Of a stretch of DNA of 64,000 bases, positions 2,471-60,060 are shown piece after piece. The stretch spans positions 9,796,001 through 9,860,000 of the forward strand of contig JAWMAR010000027.1 of the NCBI GenBank assembly GCA_036785375.1, written 5' to 3'. Origin of the DNA: Leucoraja ocellata. Taxonomy: Eukaryota. Position numbers and translations under genes: made by a program. Under the pieces are notes generated by a model. The model was not told the origin of the DNA and did not search any database. It worked only from the letters and a program-made list of their open reading frames with translations. Numbering within the stretch: position 1 is the first letter of the stretch; every line of letters starts with the position of its first letter.

Positions 2471-4240
2471 GCACCCTGGCAGTCAGCGCAGCTATCGGAA
2501 ACTTGCAAGTAATGTTTACGCTTGTGCTTCAGGGTGAAAACTGCATTCTTTTTTTTTTAAACCAGCTTTTTCACCTTTTTTTTTACAGATCACCTGATTT
2601 GACAGAAGCATTATTGGTTTAGTGCTCTAAAAAAGGTTGAACCAGTTTCTGGGCACATTTACTATTGCTGCAAAGAAGCTTTTATCATAAGCTACACATT
2701 CAGGTTATGATGGGCTTGGTTTTGAAACATTTAGTGTAAGCAGGGGGGAATGATTTTGGTGAGATCTTGAACGTGGAAGGTAAAATTGTTTATGTATCCG
2801 TGGAAATCAAGCCGTGGAAAATTGGGTAAAAAGAGATTTATACATTTGCAGATGCATAAACATTAACCTCAAACTACACACTGTACCTAAAACCTGGATT
2901 AGCTTGGGTGGAATGTCATAAACAAGGGGCACATCTGTCTCTCAAGAAACTGAATGGAACGTGTTATTTTCTGTGAATAGCAACAAACTGATAAATGTGT
3001 CGACAATTGTCCTAATAAATGGCCCAAATTGTCAAAAATGCTGATTTAAGCAGCGCTATTTGCTAAACCGATAATTGAATAATGAAGTTTAATTGTAAGC
3101 CCAGTTAATGTAAGTGATTCATTTAGTCCAAATTACATTTATGATCCAGTAACTTGGAACTTTCTATGAGCATGGTTTGCAGTTTCAGGGCTCTGCAGAA
3201 TGTCTGCAGAATATGCAGTACGGTTTGATTTAGTTGCAAGGCCAAAAGATTACTCAAGGGCAGATGAAAATCCGAGATAATTTAATGAAATCCAATAAAC
3301 AGTTTAAAGTAGATAAAAACAGAGATGGCATACCCCGGATAGTATATTGGTTGGAATAATAATTGATTTAATAATCCAGAGTCTATATTGCTATTTCAAA
3401 AAAATCAGAATTCAAGAATTGAACTGCTGTTAACATTTAAATAATTGTAAAACCCAGCTAGTTCACTGATGTTATGTTTAGAAGGAATCCTTTCACCCCA
3501 TAGTAAAGGGTCAGGCAAATATGTGACTGGTTTTACACCAACTTGACTAGCCTTGATTTGCTCCTAAGGCATTTGGAGATTGCCAGGAAATGCAAGTTAT
3601 GGGCACATCCAGGGACTGGACTACAAGTCCTTTCAGCAGAGGGAGAGAAAAGAGGTTCTTGATGGACAAATCATGTATTTAAAGGATAACTTTATTCCTT
3701 CAGTTTAATAGAATTAACTGCTGTGAATATTATTTTACCTTTTCTTCATATTCAAGTGATTGATCAAATATTCTTTCCAGATATTATTTATCGCAGGAGA
3801 TGCATTTCAGTAGCAAAACTGAGGCTAAAGGTTAAGGCGATGCTCTTAAAGACCGTACAAAAAACACTCATGCAGTGTGGAGCATTTTAAATAGATCACT
3901 AGGTGGTTCCAAGATTGGTTCAAGCTTTTCAACAAGATCTCTGTGGAAAGTCCTACTGTCTGTTCACTGAAAGATTTGATGGTACAAATTTACTGAGCTA
4001 GTAAATGTCAGAATCTTTATTTTGTACTTTCCTGGGCCCTTTGCTGAGAACCTATTTTACTGGTTTCTGGAGCCTGGTGTTCAGCTGCAAGACAGACAGC
4101 ATCAGGCCTCTGTTGGTGTGAAGGCCAGGCCCCAACATCCTGCAACATCTGGCAAGAAAGGGGTGGAACTTGATCAATTCTGAACAGTTGTCAAAAGTTG
4201 TATTATTGTAAACTTTTAAATGTCTCTAACATTCAGAAAC

Positions 4241-4370
4241 AGCCTGAAGAACGTTCCCGACCCAAAAGGCCATCTATTGATTCACTGCATAGATGATGCC
4301 TAACCTACTGAGTTCCTCCAGCCATCTTGTATATTGCTCAAGGTTTCAGCATCTGCAGTTCTTTGTGTCA
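4241..4370 (+). mobile_element. Short PLE-derived element
   Basis: ctgaagaacgttcccgacccaaaa...gagttcctccagc...cagcatctgcagttc. Confidence 0.7.
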
Positions 4371-5390
4371 AAACATTATCTCACCCTGTTGCTACTTTTT
4401 CTCACCAGCTCTTAATGCTCATCTATCATGCTCGTATTTGCCTTTGTAAATAATGAAACATAAATGTCCTATTTTAATTCAGACAGTTTAATTAGTTAAT
4501 GTTAAGGGACACCTCGTACAGCAGATGATTTAATCATGAAGTCTTTAGTGCACATGTTATGGTTGTCTCATTCAACCTTTCACACTCTGCCACTGGGCAA
4601 TCAGAAGGCCAAGGACATTGGCACATGAATCACATTTCATATTCACTCTCCCGAGATGGTATCCTCATTCCAAAAATTCATACTTGTTTTCAGGCTGACA
4701 AAATTCACTTGTGAAGCAGGAGGAGTTGGGTGACAGACTGCTCCCAGATAGAAACTAATGACCTTTTAGTTAAGGGGGGGGGGGGGGGTTCAAAGAGTCA
4801 GCTGATCAAACTCCACAGTTCCTGGCTGAGCTTTGTCAAATATAATCTCGTGTATTCTTACATTTATTTCTCAATGATGAAACTCTTTTTTTCTTTAAAG
4901 ACTTTGGTTACCACCACCAGGATGCAGCTGAACAGAGTTGTAAATGTTTGTACACCCTTGGAATCCCTCCAGTATATATTAGGAAGTTAATTATATTGAT
5001 TCATACTGTGTTCCAAGAGAAGTAATTAAAGATCTAACTATCTAAGCAAATCTGTGTGGCTGTTGCCTTGGCGAGGTGACCATTGTTCATAAACAAAAGG
5101 TTTTCATGGGTGAATTCCATTTCCTCTGGACCCACCAAAGTTAAATTTCAGTCATCCCTATCTTCGTGTTGTATAAATATAATTCATGTGAAATACTATA
5201 GTTTACTGACACCTTTTATGTGAAGCATATTAGTCCTAAATGAGGCTCTTAGAAGTTAATCATTATTTTGTTTGAGATGAATAATTCATATTGACTTCAA
5301 AAAAACAGGAAGTAGCACACTGGGGAACCATATTTCCAAAATGTCTTAAATTGTAAAATGAGATATAGCTCATTTAAAATCTCAAGGGGT

Positions 5391-5687
5391 TTTGTTTAGT
5401 TTTGAGATATAGCATGGATACAGGCCATTCAGCCCTCCGAGTCGATGCTGACCATCGTTCACCCATGCACCAGTTCTATGTTAGAACACTTTTGTATCCT
5501 AAACACTAGGGGCAATTTACAGAATCAATTAACTTACAACCCCTTTGGAATGTGGGAGGAAACTGGAGCACCCAGAGAAAACTCATGCAGTCATAGGAAG
5601 AACGTACAAACTCCACACGGACAGCACCAAACCCGGGCCTTTAATGCTGTGAGGCAGCAGCTCGACCGCTGCGCGACTGTGCCGCCC
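5391..5687 (-). mobile_element. HE1-like tRNA-derived V-SINE
   Basis: Minus strand has a tRNA-like head (gggcggcacagtcgcgcagcggtcgag), the V-domain-like ttttctctgggtgctccagtttcctcccacattccaaag, and a CR1-like tail ending in aaactaaac. Confidence 0.8.
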
Positions 5688-6264
5688 TGTCTAAAGTGTT
5701 ATTGCAAAAAAATTAATTATTGATTATGCATTTAAGGTGAAAGGTCAGTGGCATTATCTGCTACAATTACTTTCTGAATTAAACAATGTCATATTTCCAT
5801 GAATAGGGTTTGCCCCCTAACTATTTGTGCGTAAGTTGCTGCTCTTTGCTGCACTCGCAGTGGAGGCGCTGAGCACTGGAACCACCTAAAAAGTCAGGTG
5901 AATTTCCCTGGTCTGTTCATGCAGATCCACAGCCCAATTAGGGAGTTGTTCTGGCGTCGAGCAGATTGCTGGGTGATGATTTGGAAGCTGTAATCTGATC
6001 TCAGGATGTAGATGATGATTCAAAATTCTTCTTGGAGTTCATTTTATCAGCTGATAGATCACTAACTGATTAGATTAGTAACTGAGTCTCCTGCAGGGTT
6101 TCTCCTCTTTGTTGTGAGTTGGTTTGTGGAAGATAAAATCAATTCAGTGAACGAAGAAACCTATGTCAAAAAGGAAACTTTCATCTAACTTTAATGTTAT
6201 AGCATGAATGTATACTGTTAACCAGCACAGGCTAAAGTTATATCTATATCTATATATATATATA

Positions 6265-6408
6265 TATATTGGTGAGACCAAGCGCAGGCTCGCTCAGTCT
6301 ACCTAAACCTACCTGATCTCCCAGTTGCTAAAAACTTTAACACCCCCTCCCTACAGCAATTTTGTGTCTAACTTCGGTTTAAACCAGCATCTGTAGTTTC
6401 TTCCTACA
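6265..6408 (+). mobile_element. Penelope-like element remnant: GIY-YIG endonuclease fragment fused to the short-element 3' end
   Basis: YIGETKRRL then, after a deletion and frameshift, RSVYLNLPDLPVAKNFNTPS, directly followed by ttttgtgtcta...aaaccagcatctgtagtttcttcctaca. Confidence 0.8.
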
Positions 6409-6930
6409 ACCGGCTGAAGTTTATTGAGCTGGGATAGATTCTTGTGTTCCATGTCAGAACAACGAGATGACACAAGAACACAACATCTCGGCTGAATACT
6501 ATCTCAATTCTTGCAATCATCTGACGTTGAATAACGAAATCGGATTTCCTCTATTTGCAATGATGGAAAAATAAATAATCCTGTTCTATAATAAGTGTTT
6601 CAGTTACATAATAGAGGAGATGTTGTGAATCATATATATGCTTTGGTTAAGGGAAATTTCATCTGAAAACTGTTACACCCAATAGGCAGTATGATGCTTG
6701 ACATTAATCTTAAGTGACAGTAATTAGAGATCTTGGTGGGAATGTAACAAATATCATAGTTATTGTCAATTGAAGAATATTAATGTTATTATTTAATGCT
6801 GCAATTGTAAAGCAATTTCTACCTCGATGAAGCACATATCTGAGAAGCATAAAATTGTACTGGAGACAGAAAAAATATCATGTAGAATAATAATTTAACT
6901 TGAAATGCTGAGTGAAATTTTGATTCAAAC

Positions 6931-7057
6931 ATGAAGAGGGGTCTTGACTCGACATATTACCCATTCCTTTTCTCCAGAGATGCTGCCTGACCTGCTGAGT
7001 TACTCCAGCCCATTGTGTCTGTCTTTGGTTTAAACCAGAATCAGTTCCTCCTTACAC
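6931..7057 (+). mobile_element. Short PLE-derived element
   Basis: Matches the family consensus, with a decayed core. Confidence 0.75.
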
Positions 7058-7768
7058 ATGAAATAGATCAATTTGGTAACAGATCAATTTGTGTCTGATA
7101 TTGGACAATTCTGTCACACCAACAGTGCCAGATATACAAAATGAATTATCATATTAGACAAAATTGGTTGTTGGTATAGGAGAAATAGATGTAAGAAAAG
7201 CAAATGGATGACAAGTCCAAAGGGAGAATTATCCTGCTCATTTGTTATGCCCTCGTGGTCTCTGTTAGAGACACTGACTAATGCATAATGGTATTGTGCT
7301 TTTATGTTTCATACTGCAGTAATAAGTATTCAATATTATTACTCAATTGCTGACTAGTGGTGTAGATGAGTATTTTAGTCACACATTGTAATACACAATC
7401 ATTTTATTTTGAGCTAGGACTAGGGAAACAAAAAAAATAAGGTCCAGCAATCTGGAGAAAGGTCTGAAAGCAGTAGATGCATCAGCTCGGAAAATGTGTC
7501 TGCAGTGAGATTGCCAATGGCATTGCTCAGAATAACATCTAGAACTGTTCATTCAATGAAGAACCAGCATTCACAGATGCTGAAGGCTACTCAGTAACAT
7601 ATTCACTGTAAAAGGCCAAACACTTTGCTGCTATTTTCACTCAACAATAACGTGTATTTTCTCAAATGTATTTCTTTTTAGTAAGTAGATGAACATAAGG
7701 TTGAAAAATGACGAAATAAATCTATAATGCTAGAAGAAATTATTGGTATTTATAAGAAGTCTATAGCG

Positions 7769-7901
7769 CAGTCTGAAAAAGGGTCACAACCCGAATTGTC
7801 ACCTATCCATGTTCTCCAGAGATGCTGTCTGACTTGCTGAGTTATTCCAGCACTTTGTGTCCTTTTGTGCATTGACCGGCCTCTGCAGTTCCTTGTTTCT
7901 A
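7769..7901 (+). mobile_element. Short PLE-derived element
   Basis: cagtctgaaaaagggtcacaacccgaattgtcacc...ctgcagttccttgtttcta. Confidence 0.75.
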
Positions 7902-8101
7902 AATCTGCAGTGCTCCCTGATTCTGGTAAGATAATAATGAATATTTTTGCAATCTATTCTAACTACTCTTGAGAAAAGAATGGACTATTTACAATGCTTT
8001 CATTTTAGTGTATATTTTCCAACATTGTACAAGATTCGTACAATGTGAACTACAAATCGTTTCTGTGTTACTGACAGCTTCCATTTTGGTTTTATCCACA
8101 G

Positions 8102-8205
8102 ATCCAGACGGTGGAAAAAGTGGAGCCTCAGCATCGAACACTTGTACATTGTCAGCCTTTAGTACGATAGTGCTATCTTTGTCAGCCAGATCAGCATTAT
8201 GGTGA
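8102..8205 (+). CDS. Terminal coding exon of a contactin (CNTN4/CNTN3 group), GPI-anchor signal
   Basis: Branch-like ctgac (~8071), pyrimidine tract and cag acceptor (ag 8100-8101). Phase-1 exon xPDGGKSGASASNTCTLSAFSTIVLSLSARSALW* closely resembles the recalled CNTN4 C-terminus ([28 protein letters not shown]). Confidence 0.85.
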
Positions 8206-9460
8206 AAACATACACTGACTTACCTGACATCCTTTAATCAGTCAAAGATCTAAAGACTTGTAATGAGTAAATCTACAAATTTTGCTATTGTGCATTTACT
8301 GACCCACCAATGTTATCTTTTCCTATAAATCTTTATGACTGTACATTTTGTCATTTCAAATTTATGTGGACAAACCAGTAATTACCAGTACAATTCATGC
8401 AACAGGTTAAATTAAGACATATGTTCTTTGCCTGAGGTTTTGTTTGGGTTTTTCAAATGCACTAAAGTCAACATCTGAAAAACATCAGACACTTGATGTT
8501 ACCAAAGCGTACAATCTAATGGTTTGCATATAATGTACAGATGGCTATATTTATACATGTGAAATGTTCAGTATTTTGAAATTATTATTTAGCACAATTT
8601 TTTTAAGTATCTTGGAATGTGTTGTTGGTTTTAACATTGTAATACAATTTTCAAATTTGTCACCTGTACCAGAAATCATTGTTGCCTGTATGAAAATAGG
8701 AGATTTAACCAGATAACATTGGTGCAGTATCTATACCTTAACTGACAAAGATTTCTCTGGAATATCCAGGCGCAGTCATAACAAATGAAAAATAAAATGT
8801 ATGTACTCACTTCCACATTTCACAACTATTGATGACTTCCTATGATTTGAAATGCATTATATTTTTGTTGCAGCAAGCCAACCTGGATTATCTAGTATAT
8901 TCTAATGTAGTAACAAGCAATGAAGTTTAATTAAAATATAATGACGAACAAGGCTAAAATTGATTGTTAGGTATGCATTGGTCAAGTGTAATATGCAGCA
9001 TATTTACAAAGTCTATAGCTGGGGGAGGGGGAGAAGTAAGACAACAGACGATAAAGGTGAAATAAATCAAATCTGTGATGTTGCATGTGAAGGTGCATTT
9101 ATTTTTCTGTTAAATTAATGTACATAAGTCTTACAGTGCATATTTGTAAATATACATCAGGAGCAACATAATTTTACAATAAGCTGTTACTAGATTAGCT
9201 GTAAAGGTGAGCTGGTCAGTTTGATTACCGGATTGAATCTAAATGGTTGTTATAGTCTTTTAAAAGTTTGATCTACTTTCAGAAAAATAATTGTTTACAA
9301 CTATGTTTTTTAAACTTCAAATCTGTTTTATATTTTTCATTTGTCTGTTATGACTGGCCACTGTTAATGTAGGCAGCAGTATTTACATTTAAATATTGTT
9401 TGCTTAATTCTGTAAATAGTAATTTGACAAAAATCCTTTGAAATAAATCTGCCTTGAAAC
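8206..9460 (+). other. Probable contactin 3' UTR
   Basis: Repeat-free AT-rich stretch after the stop codon, with several ATTTA motifs and AATAAA at ~8791, ~9061 and ~9442; true end unknown. Confidence 0.6.
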
Positions 9461-13350: not shown

Positions 13351-15749
13351 TGGAGTGTCATGGATTTGAAGGAAGACTGGGAACCAATCATTAGGCAGTG
13401 AAATTGTGGCCAAATTCAGTAGAGAATTTGAGAGTGAGGATTGGCTGACAGGTGGGGTTCAATGGGCATGGATTGGTGAAGATGTGGGGGAATCAAAGGC
13501 TGGGGCAGGTCTGTAATCATTGAGGGATCTGATAGAAATGAGTCAATAGTCAGAGTAGTAGGTTGGATTAGGCTGGCAGATTGATTGCATGGAAGTGTTT
13601 TATAAGTCTCACAAACTTGCAGAGGTTGGGTTGTCACTATTTAGATGAGAAGGCCGAGAGCAGGGTAAATATATTGTTTGAAAGTACTTTGCTGAAGTGT
13701 GTCCCCATCACAGGACTCTGCAGAAGGGGAGCTGCTCAGACAAGCTCCTGTAGCTCATGCACTGTGGAGGATTGCTTCTGATGGAGCAGGCTACAAGCAG
13801 TGCAGCCACATGTATAGGAAGACAAAGTGTAGAAATCACATTACTCAGAGTAAACCTAAATTTACCATTACATTTTTTCACTCAAAATTAAACAAATATG
13901 ATGCTAACCAATCTAGTTTCTCCCCCCCCCCCCCCCCCCCTTATAATGACCTGGGTGAAGAGATGTGAATGTTGATATTAATTTATCCTAATAGATAGCT
14001 TAACCAATTTTGCTTTCCACATTCAATTAGCTAACAGCGAAATGTATATTTGATGCATTAATGGTTTTCTGCTTTTTGCCTGTGTGATCCTTGGGAGGTT
14101 GGATGCATCCAAGATACGTGACCACAATATGTAGTCATTTAATTGAAAACAGGACGTGTTATGATAATGATGTCAATGGAATTGGCTGTAACACATTCTG
14201 TAATTGGTTGGATGCCTTTATTGATCAACAATGCCACTGTTTTCCATGTTGCTAATCATTATTTATCTTTTTTCTTTATTGTGAGACTAGGAAATAATTA
14301 AAATATTGTCTGCTTCCTATTATGAAAGTCAAATATGAAGCTGGGTTTTCCATTATATTAGATGGACATTGCTATGCAGACTGCATTCCATCATTGTTTG
14401 CATCTTTTTACATTTGAACCAGAATTTCCCTGCATCTCCACAGGCAGAAACAATAATTATGTTTAAAGTTAAATACCTAAAAATGCAATAAAACAGCGAG
14501 GAGTTGTGCATGCTGTATGTGTTCTGAATGTTTATCATTTATAGCCAAACCCCACCCTCCCTAGTTAGGGCCATAAATTACGTAGGCTGTATTGTGATTT
14601 TCCGCAATGCATCATCGGTGCATTTATGAAGAAGCGAGAGTTGAAAAAGGAAAGTTATTGTATATTTACTTAACAGATAAATTCATTGAGAGTTAAATTT
14701 AAACAGTATCAGCTCCTCCATGCAAGAAGGTCTGAGATTCTTCATCAGTAAAGATTCAAGGATGTGCTTAAAAGCTCCATGATGAAATGTAACATCCACA
14801 CTGTCTCCCGGGAAAATGCTGAGCCATGAAAGTGGAGAAGGGGTATTTGGGATGGCGTTAAGAAGCTCAAGCCCATGAACTGGAGGCACATTGAAGTCTG
14901 TATAAGCAACGCATCAGCTCACAAACTGTCCACACACTCGCACCAGGTACCCAATGTCAAAGAGTCTGGGCTTCCCATATTGGTCTCAACACTTCAGAAC
15001 CAACCAAACCACTGTGAAAGTAAGTCATCCTCAATACTCAAAGACTGTCTGAAAAGAGGATGACAATGGGGAAAAACAATAAGTAGAATCTTACCTTGGT
15101 GGAGAGAGAGTATGGAACACCTATATGAAAACAATTGACTGGCTTTATACATGAAACATGGAAACATTGTGCACAGGTGGAGCACATAATATAGAAGAAT
15201 GTTGGTGTTTAATATAGAAGGGACGCTAAAATATTGCTACTTCTGGTGATGGTTTGGCGAGACTACACTGGGAGTCTTACACTTAGTTTTGATCTCTTTA
15301 TTCAAGGAAGGATGTGCCAAAATTGGAGACAATTTGGGAAGTGATTCCTGGGCTGAAGGGATTGTCTTATGCGGAAAGGGCAAGCTTTGGAATTTAGGGG
15401 AATGATAGGCAGGTCTCATTGAAGCATCCATGATTGTGAGATGAACTGGACAAGGCAGACAGTGAGAGAGCTGTGGGTGAATTGTGATTTACTGGAAGGG
15501 CAAGGGTTTGGCCACATAAGACAAAAATGTGGAGGAATTTCTTCCCTTCAAGCATCATGACTGCTAAGGATTCTTTATCAAAAGCAGTGGAGGCTGAGAT
15601 ACATATTTTAAAGGCTTAGGAAGATGAATGTTTTGACTATGAAAAAGTCACGAGTTATAAGTATTAAGCAGACAAGTGAAGTTAAGGAGAAAGAACAGAT
15701 CAGCCATCATGTTATTGAATAGCAGAGTAAAATCGGGTATCCAGTGGTC

Positions 15750-15974
15750 TACACCAAAGAGAAACACAAGTTGCTGGAGTAACTCAGCGGGATAGGCAGC
15801 ATCTCTGGATAGAAGAAATGGGTGATGTTTCGGGTCAAGACCCATTTTCAGACCGTCTTGATCCGAAATGTCACCCATTCCTTCTATCCAAAGATGCTGC
15901 CCGTCCCGCTGAGTTACTCCAGCATTTTGTGTCTATCTTCAGTTTAAACCAGCATCTGCAGTTCCTTCCTACAC
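15750..15974. mobile_element. Fold-back pair of short PLE-derived elements with 11-bp TSD
   Basis: Minus copy followed by plus copy; flanked by atccagtggtc (15739-15749 and 15975-15985). Confidence 0.85.
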
Positions 15975-17520: not shown

Positions 17521-19989
17521 CTACATGCCATGTTCTTAGTACTTTATATTTAAGAAGGACATTGCTGATCAAAACCCAACCAAAACAAAACGATTGGTAG
17601 AAAACAATGGCAAAGATTATATGTGCATTAATGCTTATTTTTAATGCATCTATCAGCAGTTCTTGATTGCATGTTTCCATAAAATAATGGAGTTCTTTTA
17701 ACTGGTCCAAATTCCACCACCCCAGCAATCAACATCCAAACAAGAATAACTGGACATCCATCTCATTACAATTGGTGGAATCTTGCAGTGCACACAATGG
17801 CATCTGCTTGTACTTCATTACTTAGGGTCATTGTCAGAATGTATTAATTGTACGTGTTGTGCTGTGGGATACTTCTGGGAATATAACTTAGAAGGTGCAG
17901 TGTTTGTTTGAGCATGGGCATGTCCTCCCTGTAGCCATATGTGTTCATATTGTGATCCGAATAGGGCAGGGGAGTCATGCGGTATTCCTGCTTTGCCACA
18001 ATGTAACATTGTCGCAGATAGACTGCAATATTCAGTCTGCCACTTAAAGTCCCAACATGTAAATATTGTAGTTTAAGTGTTCTGTCAAACAAATAAATCA
18101 CTACCTCTTTGGATATTTATATGCTGCGTCCCAATGCATTCAGGAAGACATTACATAGATTTGTCTTTCATATTTTAAACTAAAGCAGTCGAAAATGTTC
18201 ATTATAATTATTTACAACTTTTTAAAATGATCATTGATGATGTCAATCATTCTTCAAGTTCAGGTCCAGTAATCATGTTACCTCTTTGGACATTATCTAG
18301 TTTAGTTTGCCTTTCGTCTCAAAGGGCAAATACAGTCAATTACGCAGATGCATAAAAAGTGGTTAACCAATATAAACATGCCAAATGGTTAATTTTTAAA
18401 ACATAACAGATACTGATTAACACAAAATGTTAATCAGCAGGTCAGGCAGCATCCCATCACAGATACTGATTAACACAGGTTGTAGCAGCCCTTCAGAAGA
18501 AATCATACTCCCTTTTTGAACTGAAGAAGGACATCAAATCGTGACAATACGTTTCAATCAATTTTCATAAGAGGGTTGAATCATCACAACAGAAGAGGTT
18601 GATGTTGCAAATGAAGCAGAATAATGTATTTATCAAAGATTAATGATGTGGAATTATCCTCACTAAAATAGACACAGAATGGGAATATTGAAAATGCAAA
18701 TACTGAATAAAAGCCTGGAAATTGGATTTACAAATTATGCAAAAAAGTGGTTTTGCACTTATTCTAAGATGTAGTGACCTATTAAATTCCTGTACATTGT
18801 AAAATTGGACTGGGTGCTGTTTTTTTTTTTGCATTGCTTACATTTCTCAAGCGCCATTTACTCATGCAGTAGTGCCTTAATGTACATGATGCTCATTTCT
18901 GCCTTACCAACAAAAACGGAAGCCAACGTGTGCACACTGCGATTAGTTTTTCAAAACAAGCTAATCCTAGAGCAAGATATAAATTAAACATTTCTCAGTG
19001 GGACAATCTTACTGATTTATGAGCTTTTAATTTTCTCTATATTTCACATATCGCTGCTGTGTCTTATAGTAAAGGTAGTCAAAGCCTAGCCAGTTTTTTT
19101 TCTATTTCAACCAAATATGTTGTAAACTATAACTTAAGGTATTAACAATTTAAAAAAAACAAAGTAAATTTGGGTATTAAGACCTTCAACCCTCAAGCAT
19201 TTGCACCATAATTAATTTGCATACATTTTTGATTTTTTTTTGTTCAAAGATGTTTGTAGCATTATACAGGAAATGTTGTGATATTGCAAAAGTTACACTC
19301 CAAAAATAATCCTTGCACGATAAGATGATTGCATTATGCAAACAATCATGTCTGTGGGGAAAAGATGGTTAGGGGCTGGTTTTTGACTCAAAATAACAAG
19401 TTTCTTTCACTGGATTTTCAAAAACAAAGGTCTTTGTGATAGCTATTAGTTTATTTTTATTACTGCAAGCTGAAAATACTGAAGGCTATTTGTTATTTAA
19501 TAACTATCATTGCATAAGTAACAATAGAAGCAATTGTTTATCAATTCCAATGGCAATTGTGATTTTAAGAGACAATGGTGTCTGATTACTGCAGGGATGA
19601 TACATGGAAATAGTTTTTCCAAAGACTGTTTTTCTACTTTTCAATTTCCAAAGCAACTTAAGTAGTTTTATAGTTCCCAATCAATACCATGTTATAACCA
19701 TTTCAGCCCACCTAATATAAATAATGTTAATTAATCAAACACGTTATATAACATTTGTATATTCAAAATACTTGTTATACTTACTGCAGCTATGACCCTG
19801 CAATCTCTGCAAAGCCTTGTTGCTATTATCACAACCAGCAGATTAGATCTTAGGGATGGGGTGTGACAAGAAATACATTTAGACCATCTTCATGGTAATT
19901 TCCCTCACCTCCAAGACAGTCCTTTATGATGCTGCACTCCGAGTTCCTTCCCGTGCTCACTAGCACAAAGACATGTAGATGCAAAGTCT

Positions 19990-20113
19990 TTAAGAAAGAA
20001 CTGCAGATGCTGGAAAATTGAAGGTAGACAAAAATGCTGGAGAAACTCAGCGGGTGAGGCAGCATCTACGAAGCCAAGGAAATAGGCAACGTTTCGGGTC
20101 GAAACCCTTCTTC
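19990..20113 (-). mobile_element. Short PLE-derived element with near-intact hammerhead core and 13-bp TSD
   Basis: Minus strand reads ctgaagaagggtttcgacccgaaacgttgcc (first bases overlap the TSD); flanked by agatgcaaagtct (19977-19989 and 20114-20126). Confidence 0.85.
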
Positions 20114-20461
20114 AGATGCAAAGTCTGCAGGCAACTCCTTTTGGGACAAGCTTTCATGCAGCAAGTAGAAAGGAGACCAGCTTGTTGGTTTTAAAAAAAA
20201 TGATTTTCCCCTTTTCATAGGTTTATTTCAACTGCATGTTAGCATTAAATATAGTTCTAAAGAAGGGCGAACAATTTCAAAGCAGTAAGATTTTATTATT
20301 GTTTTTCACTAAAAGTTCCTTGAATTCCTGAGTAGTGGGGAAATTTGTTTTCAAAGTTTTGGAGGAAATTTTAACTCCTGCCAATAATGCAGGAAAATAT
20401 CTAATCTACTGACATCTACCTTTAACCAGATTATATTTGCAAATGGGAAACGCTGGAGCAA

Positions 20462-22257: not shown

Positions 22258-22565
22258 GAGGAACTGCAGATGCGATTTATACTGAAGGCAAATATAAAAT
22301 GCTGGAGTAACTCAGCAGGTCAGGCAGCATCTGTGGAGAAAAGGAGTAGGTGGCGTTTCACGTCGGTACACTTCTTCAGAATGAAAGTATAGGTGTTTAA
22401 GAAGGAACTGCAGATGCTGGAAAATCGTAGGTAGACAAAAGTGCTGGAGAAACTCAGCGGGCGCAGCAGCATCTATGGAGCGAAGGAAATAGGCAACGTT
22501 TCCTATTTCCTTCTCTCAATAGACGCTGCTGCACCCGCTGAGTTTCTCCAGCACTTTTGTCCACC
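22258..22565. mobile_element. Minus short PLE element (22258-22380) plus fold-back pair (22396-22565) with 14-bp TSD
   Basis: TSD tgaaagtataggtg at 22382-22395 and 22566-22579; the inversion pivots just after aacgtt. Confidence 0.85.
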
Positions 22566-22779
22566 TGAAAGTATAGGTGGTGGAGGTAAACTGACGTCGC
22601 GTACTCAGTAGACGCTTTGCGATGTCTTGATTCGTGCAGAGTGAGAAGTTCAGTGGTTCACTTGCAGAAACTCTGCGAGTCCCTGCACCATTCAATCTAC
22701 TTCACACGTTGGAGCTGACCACTGGTATCATTAATTAATGCAATGTAACTTTACATGTCCCGCTGTACAAGCGGACCAG

Positions 22780-23278: not shown

Positions 23279-23992
23279 ATGGGATTCGACTTGGAGCGTT
23301 TCAGCGAGGAAGTAGACCCCGACTTTAAATGCAACTTGTGCAACAAAGTGCTGGAGGACCCGCTCACAACCCCTTGCGGGCACGTCTTCTGCGCCGGCTG
23401 CCTTTTGCCCTGGGTGGTGCAGCGGGGCAACTGCCCGGTGAAATGCCGTCGTGTGGCCACCAAGGAGCTGAACCACGTCCTGCCCTTGAAAAACCTCATC
23501 CTGAAGCTGGAGATCCGCTGTGACAACCACGGGCGAGGTTGCGACAAGGTGGTGCGGCTGCAACACTTGGCAGAGCACACGGAGATGTGTGATTACTCGC
23601 CGGCCGTGTGCGGCCACAAGGGCTGCGGGGAGTCGCTCAACCTGAAGGACGTGGACGCGCACATGCGGGAGAGCTGCGAGCAGCGGCCGGTCGGCGTGTG
23701 TCGGCGCGGCTGCGGGCTGGTGCTGGTACACGGCGAGCAGCGGCGGGACTCGCACTGCTGTGTGCGGGCGCTGAGGGCTCAGGGCGGAGCGTTGCAGGGG
23801 CGCCTGGCCGGCCTGGAGCGGGAGCTCAAGCTGCAGCGGGACCGCTCTGGCAAGCGGCAGAAAGCGCTGCACTCGCAGCTGTCCGCGCTGCAGAACGAGG
23901 CGCAGGTGACAGCTCTCCGCTACCAGAAGAAATTCACCGAATACAGCGCCAGGATACGCTCGCTCACCAAAAACCTCCCTGCTCAATGCAAC
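23279..23992 (+). CDS. PDZRN3: PDZ domain-containing RING finger E3 ubiquitin ligase (PDZRN3/LNX3-like), exon 1: RING, TRAF-type zinc fingers, coiled coil
   Basis: MGFDLERF...[24 protein letters not shown]...C..C (C3HC4 RING) ...[15 protein letters not shown]; 238 codons, donor gtgagt at 23993, phase 0. Paralog choice rests on overall similarity and the upstream CNTN3/4-type contactin. Confidence 0.88.
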
Positions 23993-24030
23993 GTGAGTTA
24001 CTTCAATGTGTGTGTGTGTGTATGTATGTA

Positions 24031-24150
24031 TGTAGGAAGGAACTGCAGATGCTGGTTTAAATCGAAGGTAGACTCTAAATGCTAGGGACAGGCAGCATCT
24101 GTGGAGAGAAGGAATGGGTGACATTTCGGGTCGAGACCCTTCTTCAGACT
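24031..24150 (-). mobile_element. Short PLE-derived element in intron 1
   Basis: Minus strand reads gtctgaagaagggtctcgacccgaaatgtcaccc. Confidence 0.8.
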
Positions 24151-24225
24151 GTCTGTGTATGTGTGTGTGTGTGTGTCTGTGTGTGTCTTCCCACCTAATT
24201 TTGTCAGTGTTTCTGGGTGAGAGGC

Positions 24226-25289: not shown

Positions 25290-25472
25290 ACACATATACA
25301 TACATTCTCTCATACACACACATTGGCACAATGTCACACGGACTCTCATAAAAACACTCACGCACATCCCTCATGCACACTCACACTCTCTCACACACAC
25401 ACACACTCCTCTCTCTACAGGATCTTGCTCACACAATCACTCATACTCTCTCTCTCTCACACACACACACAC
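25229..25472 (+). repeat. Compound (CA)n/(CT)n microsatellite
   Basis: Directly visible dinucleotide runs. Confidence 0.9.
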
Positions 25473-25473
25473 G

Positions 25474-25501
25474 CTGAAGAAGGGTCTCGACCCGAAACGT
25501 C
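25474..25501 (+). ncRNA. Minimal type I hammerhead-like ribozyme core within a short PLE element (25473-25565)
   Basis: CUGAAGA + A + GGGU(CUCG)ACCC stem II + GAAA + CGUC (palindromic ACGU, GUC cleavage triplet). Confidence 0.65.
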
Positions 25502-26338
25502 GCCAATTTCTTCTCTCCATAGATGCTGCCTCGCCCGCCGAGTTTCTCCAGCATTTTGTGTCTCCACCTCTCTCACACACGCAGTCTCACACTCACACAA
25601 CGTTTCCATCACAACATGGACACTCTATATAGTCTCACACGGCCAGTAGCTCCGACAGACACAAAATAACTCAAACATTTAACAAATAGTTGATCTCCAT
25701 TTAATCTCCAATGGGACACACGGCACATAAATACACGGCTTACAAACATATTTCCTGAAAGACAACGAAAAGATTCGATGAAGGCACTTCCCACTGAGCC
25801 GCCCCACCGCAGTTCTGCTTCAGGTTATGCTACTGGGTTCGGAATATCTTGTGCTCTGAATCCTCCGTCTGTTTATGAAAGGAAGGCTGCAACCTCCAGT
25901 CCAATGTGAAGTGCCGCGCACCGCGCATTCACCTGTTCACGCCCGTGGTCCGGATAAATGAGTGATAGCTTTTAGTTTAAAGAGCAGTAATGGTCAACAT
26001 ACTGCCCATTTTAGGAGTTAGTTTACAAAACATCGCCCTGGAGGGAAAGGTTTGAACCGAAGTGTCCATTATGGGCATTTATGAGTTTAAAGGGGAACAG
26101 TATATTGAAGTGGTGGCTTTATTCTACAAGAGCAGACAAATTTCGCAGTCGCTGAATGCTTTCGATGCATAAGTTTGGTGTAAGTTCCCAGTACTGTTTT
26201 TGCTACAATGGTTATTTTTATGTACAGCAGTCGGCATGTTCCACTTTTGCCTTATTGCGTGCAGTCAGTCGCCAGCCGCTCACTGACAGCTGTTTAGAGC
26301 CTAGCCACCCAACACCTGTCATTTTATCTGCTTTTTAG

Positions 26339-54211: not shown

Positions 54212-54825
54212 ATATAACCATATAACCATATAACAATTACAGCACGGAAACAGGCCATCTCGACCCTTCTAGTCCGTGCCGAACACATAATCTCCCCTAG
54301 TCCCATATACCTGCGCTCAGACCATAACCCTCCATTCCCTTCCCATCCATATAACTATCCAATTTATTTTTAAATGATAAAAACGAACCTGCCTCCACCA
54401 CCTTCACTGGAAGCTCATTCCACACAGCTACCACTCTCTGAGTAAAGAAGTTCCCCCTCATGTTACCCCTAAACTTCAGTCCCTTAATTCTCATGTCATG
54501 TCCCCTTGTTTGAATCTTCCCTACTCTCAGTGGGAAAAGCTTTTCCACGTCAACTCTGTCTATCCCTCTCATCATTTTAAAAACCTCTATCAAGTCCCCC
54601 CTTAACCTTCTGCGCTCCAAAGAATAAAGCCCTAACTTGTTCAACCTTTCTCTGTAACTTAGTTGCTGAAACCCAGGCAACATTCTAGTAAATCTCCTCT
54701 GTACTGTCTCTATTTTGTTGACATCCTTCCTATAATTAGGCGACCAAAATTGTACACCATACTCCAGAATTGGCCTCACCAATGCCTTGTACAATTTTAA
54801 CATTATATCCCAACTTCTATACTCT
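54212..54825 (-). mobile_element. Young 5'-truncated CR1 LINE with intact 168-aa ORF2 C-terminus
   Basis: LYKALVRPILEYGVQFWSP...VQRRFTRMLPG...LERRRLRGDLIEVFK...FFTQRVVAVWNELP; (tggttata)n tail. Confidence 0.92.
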
Positions 54826-55011
54826 AATAATACAGAATACAGAATACAGAATATTATAATAAAATATTTAAAACTTACTTAAAATATTTAACTTAAAAAT
54901 TAACTACTGAGGTTAACTAAAACCACCTAAAACACCTTTGCAACCAAAGACAATGAATGGTAAATTAACTTAGAAATTGTAACTTTGTCTAATCTGGCAT
55001 AATGAGAGAAG

Positions 55012-55403: not shown

Positions 55404-56176
55404 ACATGTAAATACATTAGGGGGATCCCACTTGGCATTGCATGTTTAGAAGCCAACTTTCATTTAGATGATTAAGTGCTGACATTTACTGTGTATAACT
55501 GAATATGAATGTACCTTTGAGAATTGTGCATTCCCAACAATATGCCAATCATGACAGTTAATTAAATAAAAGTTGTTTTATTGGCAGTTCCATCCTTGCT
55601 AATTGCCATGTGAAGTGCAATTCAAAATGCTAACGGAACCATTGGCTTCAGTTAATAAGATCCATTCCGCCCATAATCAGATCTGCAAGAATAAACCTTA
55701 AACTTGAGTTCATTTTGTTTTCCTGCCAATTAGCATTTGGTATCTGAAATTCAGAACTCTCGCTGCAGATCAGTGGAGCATCGGTGCTGTGTGTGTAAAC
55801 AACTGTGCGGGAAGAAATGCTCTGAGCAGCAGTCTGTGATGAGCAGGCCATGCATATAAACCCAAAATAAAATGTCCAGAGCAGGGCGTTACATCTCGAT
55901 TCTCCAAAATGGCAGGTATTAGTAAGCCATTTACAGTTAGTTACCAACAACTTCACCCCAACCCTCTGTCACCACCCCTGCCCCCTACACCTGCCATATC
56001 CAGGATCTTAACATATTTCGAATCTGCAGCATATGGAAGGGAAGGTTGCAGGCAAGAAATTGCAGGATGCTAAACTTCCAACCTTTCAGATGGGTTTTGA
56101 TTAGCCTGCAGCGTTCATTTCCCCCTACTGACGATGCCAATGTAGTGGATCTCAGGATCAATTCATCCCCAACTTC

Positions 56177-56500
56177 ATGGGGACAAGGGGTCACAGTTTA
56201 AGGATAAGGGGGAAATCTTTTAGGACCGAGATGAAGAAAAAAATTTTCACACAGAGAATGGTGAATCTCTGGAATTCTCTGCCACAGAAGGTAGTTGAGG
56301 CCAGTTCATTGGCTATATTTAAGAGAGAGTTAGATGTGGCCCTTGTGGTAAAAAGGGATCACGGGGTATGGAGTGAAGGCAGGTACAGGATACTGAGTTG
56401 GATGATCAGCCATGATCATATTGAATGGTGGTGCAGGCTCGAAGGGCCGAATGGCCTACTCCTGCACCTATTTTCTATGTTTCTATGTCTATGTTTCTAT
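56177..56500 (+). mobile_element. CR1 LINE 3' end
   Basis: TRGHSLRIRGKSFRTEM...FTQRMVNLWNSLPQKVVEA; (ttctatgt)n tail. Confidence 0.88.
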
Positions 56501-56832
56501 GTCATCCTTGCATTCCCTCTCTCTCCGTCCCTCATCCACCCTAATCGTCCGACTAGTCTCACTGTGGTCATGCTTAGTTTCACTGTGTCCAATCATCATC
56601 ACCTTCTCAGCCAACAGTGGACCATTGTGGACACCACCTTTAATTGATCATCTGGCTGGGTTTGATTTGTTATTTTCACACCTTTCATTCATTTGTTCTT
56701 TGTACATTTTCATATCTCGAACCAAAACATCATCTATCCCTTTTCTCCAGAGATGCTGCCTGGTCCGGTGAGTTACTCCAGCATTTTGTGTCTATCTTCG
56801 GTGTAAACCAGCATCTGCAGTTTCTTCCTACC
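56500..56832 (+). mobile_element. Longer PLE 3' terminal region
   Basis: Pyrimidine-rich upstream part running into the short-element consensus. Confidence 0.65.
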
Positions 56833-59136: not shown

Positions 59137-60060
59137 GTTATGATGGTGAGGCCAAATACAAATTGGCAGAACAACATGAAGATTCCAGCATCTGTGGTCT
59201 CCTGTGTCTCCATCTCAAATTCTGCTTGGGTAGCTACTGTGACAATGGCATGAACTTTGCATTTTCCCGTTTCAGATAACTGATGCCCTTGGTGTGCTCT
59301 TCCACCCACACACTCAACCATCCACCTCAGTTTCTTCCCCCTTTTTTTCACCCTTCCCATTCCCTTCCCTCCCTCTCCCTCACCTAATACTTGCTGTTCA
59401 TCTTTCTCTCCCCCCCCATCATTCGGTTGTACCACAATCGCCTACCAGCCTCTGTCCCATCCCTCCCTTACGTTTGCTCTATACTGACAATCTTTACTGT
59501 TCCCTTTCAGTCCCGATGAAGGGTCTTGCCCCCAAAACGTTCACGGACATCTTTTTGCCTCAACAGATACTGCTTGGGCTTTTCTGTTCCAGATTCCAAC
59601 ATCTGCAGTCTCTTTTGTCTTCTATTTTCCACTTCCTCAATTGCTGGGCTCCCTTGATCAAGCACTGACCCCTGATCACTCTTTTCATCCCTCACCGCAA
59701 CATACATGTCTGATGCATCTTCCCTAAACTTCCCCAAACCTCTCTCTGTGCTCCCCCCCTCCCCCCTCCCCCTTTCCACCTATGTTACTTCCTCTGGATT
59801 CTGTCCTTGTGTCACACCTTTTGGCTTTTCATCTCTGGCCCACATTCTACAATCTGCCTATCGATCCCCCACTCCCTCACTTGGATCCACCTAACGTTAA
59901 CCTGCTCGACTCTGTCCTGGCCCTCCTCTCTTCCATCTATCTTTCCCCACCACAATCAGTCTGACGAAGGGTCCCAATGTGAAATATTAACTATCCATGT
60001 TCTCCAGAAATGCTGCCTGATCCATTGTGTTGATCCACCACTTATTTTTTTTATTTTTCA
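59137..60060 (+). mobile_element. PLE 3' end: GIY-YIG C-terminus followed by two terminal-repeat-like regions with decayed hammerhead motifs
   Basis: GEAKYKLAEQH..HLKFCLGSYCDNGMNFAFSRFR*; motifs cagtcccgatgaagggtcttgcccccaaaacgtt (~59508) and cagtctgacgaagggtccc (~59957). Confidence 0.7.

Follow-up and report, generated by a model that had tools for sequence, protein, structure and literature searches.

The abundant 130-bp repeat of the skate Leucoraja ocellata is, with near certainty, the hammerhead-plus-tail segment of a 3,975-bp Penelope-like element. It was analysed in a 64,000-nucleotide stretch of genomic DNA (contig JAWMAR010000027.1, positions 9,796,001 to 9,860,000; hereafter the window) and in samples from the rest of the genome. 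We propose, with a probability of about 0.6, that the short copies of the repeat are run-off cDNAs primed within the 5' leader of a linear RNA, and that the long copies come from circular or multimeric RNA. The element class and the minimal hammerhead are already known, so the repeat itself is ordinary; the value of the family is that its many copies preserve a natural record of how Penelope-type elements integrate. Positions given with a sign are relative to the C of CUGA, which in the focal copy is at 20115 of the minus strand.

Among the 30 closest genome copies, six loci representing four events extend upstream into a common pyrimidine-rich stretch. Locus L020 goes on upstream into a frame with a GIY-YIG motif (Pfam GIY-YIG, E=1.7e-5, above the cut-off), and its GIY-YIG peptide has 157,312 first-pass candidates in the genome. 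In the endonuclease-bearing loci the hammerhead starts about 60-130 nt past the stop codon (28 of 30) and some part of the unit is present in 29 of 30; both counts were scored by eye, and four pairs of these loci are duplicates. Reverse transcriptase (RT) motifs are located upstream of GIY-YIG (RVT_1, E=4.8e-6, under the Pfam cut-off), and the presence of an RT and then a C-terminal GIY-YIG in one element is characteristic of Penelope-like (EN+) elements. The full-length locus L191 has the order repeat-ORF-repeat with a period of 3,975 bp, a first ATG at +164 and a target-site duplication (TSD) around the whole; its ORF is split into frames of 588 and 781 codons. A complete unit leads straight into the ORF in 11 of 25 young loci. 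Since the unit follows the 3' UTR and also directly precedes the ORF, it is both the 3' insertion end and the 5' leader of an autonomous element. The sequence-only reading had proposed a Penelope origin, and this stands, the unit being continuous with an element that has an RT and GIY-YIG.

The linker between the RT and the endonuclease (EN) of L191 reads CGRRRCNTC and belongs to the CX2-5CxxC type, which is common to Neptune and Nematis (PMC8557442). This motif, together with vertebrates having Neptune and Poseidon only, suggests that the element is of the Neptune type. Partial-tandem pseudo-LTRs (pLTRs) and tandem copies are present, as seen from the period of L191 and from an array on contig C1, where three young-family matches 3,985 bp apart form full-length units placed head-to-tail (L311-L313, G000:C1:8664439-8672438). 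The N-terminal part of the ORF (L191:2861-4624) is long, contains Pro/Ala repeats that vary in number between copies, and had no match in a Pfam search. At L094:4836, L107:4038, L227 and L315, the unit or the UTR end is fused directly to internal ORF sequence, which may reflect self-insertion or template jumps.

The features of the focal copy and of three other window copies are listed in Table 1. From 20115 the focal copy reads CTGAAGA-A-GGGT TTCG ACCC-GAAA-CG-TT, and its insertion starts at -1 to +2. The claimed perfect 13-bp TSD is an exact direct repeat, AGACTTTGCATCT on the minus strand, and the unit framed by it is a discrete insertion, as had been suggested. The repeat shares TCT with the 5' end of the element and about one A with its 3' end, and to that extent it represents microhomology. 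Target DNA occupies the place of the 5' strand of stem I, which this copy lacks. The leader segment AGAUGCUG is predicted to pair with the tail segment CAGCAUCU, the tail being understood as defined in PMC11167929 and PMC8557442. A second, 98% identical version of the focal insertion with at least 1.5 kb of its flank lies on this contig at a distance of 298 kb (L002, G000:C27:10114342-10114467), possibly as a segmental duplication or an uncollapsed haplotype; duplicated pairs of this kind are common among the loci retrieved from the genome.

Table 1. Positions of repeat features within the 64,000-nucleotide window
Feature	Position	Strand	Remark
Target-site duplication, 5' copy, 13 bp	20114..20126	-	Last 3 bases shared with the element start
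Target-site duplication, 3' copy, 13 bp	19977..19989	-	
Short insertion of subfamily B: hammerhead, leader and tail of the Penelope-like element	19989..20116	-	
Hammerhead core CUGAAGA with an extra A ahead of stem II	20108..20115	-	From the sequence; architecture matches motifs described in PMC4209133
Stem II, GGGU/UUCG/ACCC	20096..20107	-	Pairs retained in the consensuses of all five large subfamilies
GAAA, palindromic minimal stem III (AACGUU), UH	20088..20095	-	
Predicted cleavage	between 20088 and 20087	-	By hammerhead numbering
Stem I, 3' strand GCCUAU	20082..20087	-	Partner AUCAGU absent here, found in long copies
Leader to the first preferred 3' end (about +94)	20021..20081	-	
Penelope tail, about 33-34 nt, between the two preferred 3' ends (about +94 and +128 to +131)	19989..20020	-	
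Head-to-head unit, subfamily A	15745..15974	.	From profile matches
Head-to-head unit	22393..22573	.	Read by eye from profile matches
Long-class copy, the only one in the window	59910..60044	+	Retains ~50 nt of pyrimidine-rich 3' UTR upstream of the hammerhead

In the window, blastn detects 39 pieces, and a profile built from 13 window copies has 47 matches covering 6.7% of bases (42 when searched with the larger sample); the same profile search of the reversed window gave 0 matches. The earlier estimate of about 35 copies or fragments agrees with these counts, and all 13 starts given with it lie within 1 base of a CTGA-like start. The genome sample, 84 stretches of 10 kb picked by position on large contigs of the 3.44-Gb genome, contains 438 matches, or 521 per Mb, that cover 4.8% of bases. 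The extrapolated total is roughly 1.8 million pieces genome-wide, and the heavy amplification noted in the window extends to the genome. The label SINE-like did not hold: the consensus has no polymerase III A or B box, as judged by pattern, and a run of eight or more A follows 1 of 86 tails. In annotation, about 5% of the genome belongs under Penelope-like elements and not under SINEs. The window copies 24030-24155 and 25467-25564 are embedded in CA/AC microsatellites, in agreement with the simple-repeat preference reported for some Penelope-like elements (PMC8557442).

A larger sample of 984 kb was made up of the 84 stretches, 8 neighbouring stretches and the window. In it 272 copies reach the 5' edge of the hammerhead; 88 of them abut an inverted arm, 5 a direct copy and 179 neither. 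Clustering of 236 copies gave five large subfamilies that are 7-19% diverged from their own consensus, so of the earlier claim of at least two subfamilies the existence of several stands and the number changes. Every large subfamily has long, short and inverted copies (10/17/7, 11/36/28, 13/20/20, 4/21/13 and 2/19/6, respectively), and the sole cluster without long members consists of 4 copies that are 22% diverged. The idea of a separate non-autonomous family is not supported, on these grounds and because the unit is integral to an autonomous element, although short-only lineages may exist on a fine scale. The mismatch per copy is nearly equal in the core (0.095) and downstream (0.111), indicating neutral decay after insertion.

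The motif has the features of a putative minimal type I hammerhead, namely the core bases, stem II, a palindromic stem III, and UH with H not G, all of which can be read directly from 20115 as previously described. None of 11 core positions differs among six cluster consensuses, vs 27 of 65 downstream positions, and the core is conserved above its downstream flank across subfamilies, a property on which the sequence-only reading had staked the assignment. Loop II occurs as UUCG, CUCG and CCCG, and H17 is U or C. The core with the 4-bp stem II is intact in 48 of 272 copies. In long copies stem I is formed by 2 bp, a 2x2 loop and 2 bp, as weak as had been supposed, and spans -6 to +33, so that the edge coincides with the 5' end of the ribozyme; most short copies, including the focal one, have lost part of it. 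In 40 long copies stems I and II are 86% paired and the stem changes are one-sided, as in the first pair of stem I with its U-A/U-G swap (19/18). Covariation in stems I and II of these 40 copies did not exceed that of shuffles (265-367 of 500 reach it), the subfamilies being too close for power. An Rfam scan returned no hammerhead family at E<=1, with 8 matches all to other families.

Minimal hammerheads are reviewed as cleaving as dimers (PMC6765202). Folding in silico disfavours such a dimer for the skate hammerhead (-3.1 vs -25.0 kcal/mol for the best co-fold), in line with the low or protein-assisted activity reported for such motifs (PMC4209133, PMC11167929). The focal copy folds better than its shuffles (z=-3.1). 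Since the z values of three other copies (-0.34, 0.27 and -0.15) give no such advantage, we claim no conserved stable fold.

The 3' ends of the copies peak at two sites ~34 nt apart, which lie at +97 and +127 by the profile and at +93/94 and +126 to +132 in young copies. Head-to-head pairs number 99 vs 10 tail-to-tail pairs, and mixed end types were found in 48 of the 99 vs 28.8 expected (p=3.5e-5 on 61 classified pairs). Junctions are frequently on the palindromes TCAG.CTGA, stem II and AACGTT, as judged by eye. For example, the arms of the unit at 22393 end at the tail end and at the first end, are joined at the AACGTT palindrome and are framed by a 13-14-bp duplication. In the PAc element of the green anole, the tail lies between two sites at which the RT starts internally, and extension takes place on both target strands (PMC11167929). 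The paired mixed ends and the junctions on palindromes fit priming on both strands, which probably produces the head-to-head units by annealing at the hammerhead palindromes. TSDs of 9-17 bp occur at 22 of 145 solo copies (swapped-control mean 0.3), and TSDs are found at 29 of 98 inverted units (swapped control 0-1). Distant TSDs, considered as a sign of captured exons, lie beyond -25 in 2 of 116 cases, and this reading was dropped.

The 5' ends are clustered, as the sequence-only reading expected: 130 of the 179 non-inverted copies end near an edge just upstream of the core, and 49 go on into the 3' UTR, the threshold between the two classes being the 95th percentile of the null. On first passage the ends cluster at -5 to +2, most often at -2. 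The edge thus spans several bases: in a mixed-age sample 14 of 78 short copies retain the whole TCAGT and 18 of 78 are without even -1. A C-rich tract that ends in TCAGT is found at the edge in every large subfamily, and the short copies have no sign of a cap-derived extra G there. A candidate downstream promoter element matches 4 of 5 bases of the consensus, and is not claimed. In two alignments of RNA reads from organisms not known to be this species, the edge is marked by a drop in depth of about 25-fold or more and by peaks of loose ends at -3 and -2, the -3 peak being partly one transcript (agreement 0.48-0.58); no position where many molecules begin was seen in these reads. The step in depth mirrors copies within host transcripts, and the reads are therefore not informative on the RNA start. 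Starts are not over-represented at +28, where cleavage is predicted, with 8 of 112 solo starts in the bin +25 to +29 and 12 and 4 in the adjacent bins. The templates were therefore mostly uncleaved, which matches the report of uncleaved RNA as the main substrate (PMC11167929).

The frequency of stops at the edge differs between first and second passage. Copies of the youngest subfamily, which are 96-100% identical, were found by pattern (6,840 exact matches of a 30-mer) and taken in position order. Among 74 of their arms on first passage, 16 stop before the edge, 31 at -7 to +8, and 27 pass; two internal tandem units are excluded from this count and paired arms are taken as two events. The stop rate among arms reaching the edge is 31/58, or 30/57 without one duplicate. 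Copies in which the ORF start is joined to the leader were primed further downstream and therefore meet the edge a second time. This set, 54 rows merged by place and flank, was picked by identity to one young copy; six copies run off the retrieved DNA, two junctions come from one tandem, and in 8 of 19 checked no 3' end was found 4 kb downstream. Here 28 of 30 pass; of the other two, one ends at 0 and the other, with 87% identity, is doubtful. Nine further copies stop earlier. The contrast between 30/57 and at most 2/30 gives a Fisher p=1.5e-5. An edge at which copies often end when it is first met, and which is nearly transparent later, is unlikely to be an intrinsic block, and two template classes are favoured. 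Of the nine early second-passage stops, six fall at +83 to +94; eight stops lie at +83 to +126, and the four of them with a locatable 3' end have lengths that differ from the unit length by about +10, +4, -32 and about +45 nt.

We suggest the following mechanism. The linear RNA would begin at or near TCAGT, probably at a polymerase II start, and the two 3' ends would correspond to two internal RT start sites as in the anole element. The RT could prime at +94 or +130 of the leader and run off the presumed RNA 5' end after 95 or 130 nt, leaving short copies that would mostly be decaying dead ends in the genome. If a simple linear RNA ran from the edge through both repeats, full-length copies would be expected to begin at the edge. 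This is the case for no more than 2 of 30, and a second template class is therefore assumed. The long copies would need a template that lacks this end: a circle closed by ligation after both hammerheads have cleaved, or else a multimer produced by read-through. Retroviral minus-strand strong-stop DNA is likewise a short cDNA that is primed near the RNA 5' end and runs off that end. The likeness is an analogy only: in the skate the target would prime the cDNA, no tRNA, RNase H or integrase would be involved, and the short cDNA would integrate unchanged.

A more specific form of this mechanism is possible, although we hold it tentatively. It assumes two template pools. A linear RNA with its 5' end at the first ribozyme base, primed within its leader, would give strong-stop-like 95- and 130-bp insertions by the hundreds of thousands. 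Cleavage of the same RNA by a dimer of its 5' and 3' hammerheads, followed by closure, would make a 3,975-nt circle that gives long and more-than-unit copies. The circle fits the absent second-passage stop and the six ends at +83 to +94, to which the RT would come after roughly one full turn. An RT that returns to where it started on a circle would stop there, and we take these ends as a hint of the circle; protein occupying the following start site on a multimer would have the same effect. A circular intermediate was proposed in PMC4209133, and the hammerhead was reported to be dispensable for insertion in vitro (PMC11167929). If true, the two-pool reading would provide in vivo evidence for the proposed circular intermediate and for a role of the hammerhead. 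The contrast between the two passages predicts an RNA 5' end at -6 to -2 and a circle junction at +28.

The short unit might also spread non-autonomously, if promoter-bearing end fragments, or the short copies, gave rise to transcripts starting at the edge on which the protein of the element acted in trans, in the SINE fashion. The same fixed edge would result, second-passage copies would be expected to ignore it, and the ~65-fold excess of short over RT-bearing copies (130 vs 2 in 984 kb) would be explained; moreover, in-trans mobilisation by pLTRs has been reported (PMC3846280). We consider such spread unlikely, as no large short-only subfamily exists among the 236 clustered copies, the exception being the diverged four-member cluster. 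In addition, the CTTCGTAG variant of the focal copy also occurs in the long copy L225 (one of 10 exact matches), and many short copies are without TCAG, the presumed initiator. Somewhat less probable still is an early barrier with one template class, where a new and unstable RT drops off at a C-rich tract resembling a splice acceptor (pyrimidines, then CAG), for example because of proteins bound just upstream, and a committed RT passes. That barrier would have to produce a narrow stop window with its mode at -2 (9 of 31), and on second passage 28 of 30 copies extend through this very sequence. The TCAGT-terminated tract of all large subfamilies is in its favour, and truncation is commoner ahead of the edge, where 16 of 74 arms end at +10 to +60, than beyond it, where 9 of 27 end over the next 330 nt, as low early processivity would have it.

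Two other readings appear very improbable. One is that of a retrozyme, a small circular RNA which its own hammerhead both cuts and closes and which inserts singly or in tandem; the sequence-only reading had called the unit retrozyme-like. Non-LTR retrozymes are indeed short and non-coding, have a type I hammerhead and are related to pLTRs (PMC7229834; Li et al. 2026, preprint 10.64898/2026.07.22.740005). In the available parts of these sources they consist of head-to-tail units, each with a complete hammerhead, and PMC7229834 describes the hammerheads of the tandem repeats as canonical. The skate copies, by contrast, have a minimal hammerhead, are dispersed or head-to-head, are cut within stem I, with its 5' strand missing or cut in most short copies, and are continuous with an autonomous ORF. 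Only 5 of 272 copies in the sampled 984 kb have a direct neighbour, the spacers differ, no constant circle junction is seen, and starts are not enriched at the cleavage site. The other reading treats CAG|T as a 3' splice site and derives the short copies from spliced RNA. A polypyrimidine tract and CAG do lie immediately ahead of -1, and the Penelope intron of Drosophila virilis, which begins 46 bp after the start site, ends at helix I (PMC4209133); the start site of that element is therefore not at the ribozyme edge. In the skate, however, 14 of 21 short copies retain what would be the end of the intron, T at -5 following CAGT, and 139 single flanks have no common upstream exon. No GT..AG skip occurs among the 15 joints listed per RNA-read alignment, with 130 more joints existing.

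The skate family differs from described relatives in a few respects. Cervera and de la Pena (2014, PMC4209133) had already described dispersed minimal hammerheads that derive from truncated Penelope-like elements. The metazoan pLTR motifs of that work share CUGANGA/GAAA/UH, an extra base before stem II, G10.1-C11.1, a palindromic 15.2-16.2 and a short stem I with the skate motif, and are mostly single and dispersed, some on opposite strands, which was ascribed there to truncated elements. The skate motif differs in its 4-bp stem II and in its fixed 5' edge, which the available part of that paper does not describe; the density also differs, with ~520 matches per Mb in the skate vs ~4,000-9,000 motifs per coelacanth or Xenopus genome reported there by a stricter method.

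The Neptune- and Nematis-type EN+ elements (Craig et al. 2021, PMC8557442) resemble the skate element in having one ORF with an RT and then GIY-YIG, a CX2-5CxxC linker, a partial-tandem pLTR, an inverted 5'-truncated arm and a 30-40-bp tail on one end. In contrast to these elements as described in the accessible text, most skate insertions are only 95-130 bp long with a common 5' end. Penelope ORFs flanked by 34-bp repeats are also known (PMC2377424). The Poseidon element PAc of the green anole (Frangieh et al. 2024, PMC11167929) has two internal RT start sites downstream of the hammerhead, extends both target strands and uses uncleaved RNA, all as proposed for the skate. The ORF of PAc starts at stem II and its RT start sites are within the ORF, whereas the first ATG of the skate element is at +164, which places the corresponding sites in the 5' UTR; short fixed-edge copies are not described for PAc in the portion of the paper that was accessible. 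Nothing on fixed-edge short Penelope copies was found in the literature searched, which consisted of the main text of openly accessible papers; PMC5445492, on a fungal Copia, contains both the words "penelope" and "strong-stop".

Several coding stretches were observed beside the repeats. The window frames 54300-54878 (minus strand) and 56132-56644 (plus strand) are open and gave no match in a Pfam search; we presume that they are 3' fragments of CR1/HER1-type LINE reverse transcriptases. A frameshifted coding stretch at L088:3816-4726, which we take to be alpha-tubulin-like, is possibly a processed pseudogene. The open frame 23279-24082 (plus strand) of the window contains a RING finger (Pfam zf-C3HC4_2, E=1.1e-9) and a Sina/TRAF-type zinc finger, and has PDB matches to TRAF5/6 and LNX. 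It presumably resembles the first coding exon of a PDZRN3/4-type ligase, and the repeat copies downstream of it may therefore be intronic.
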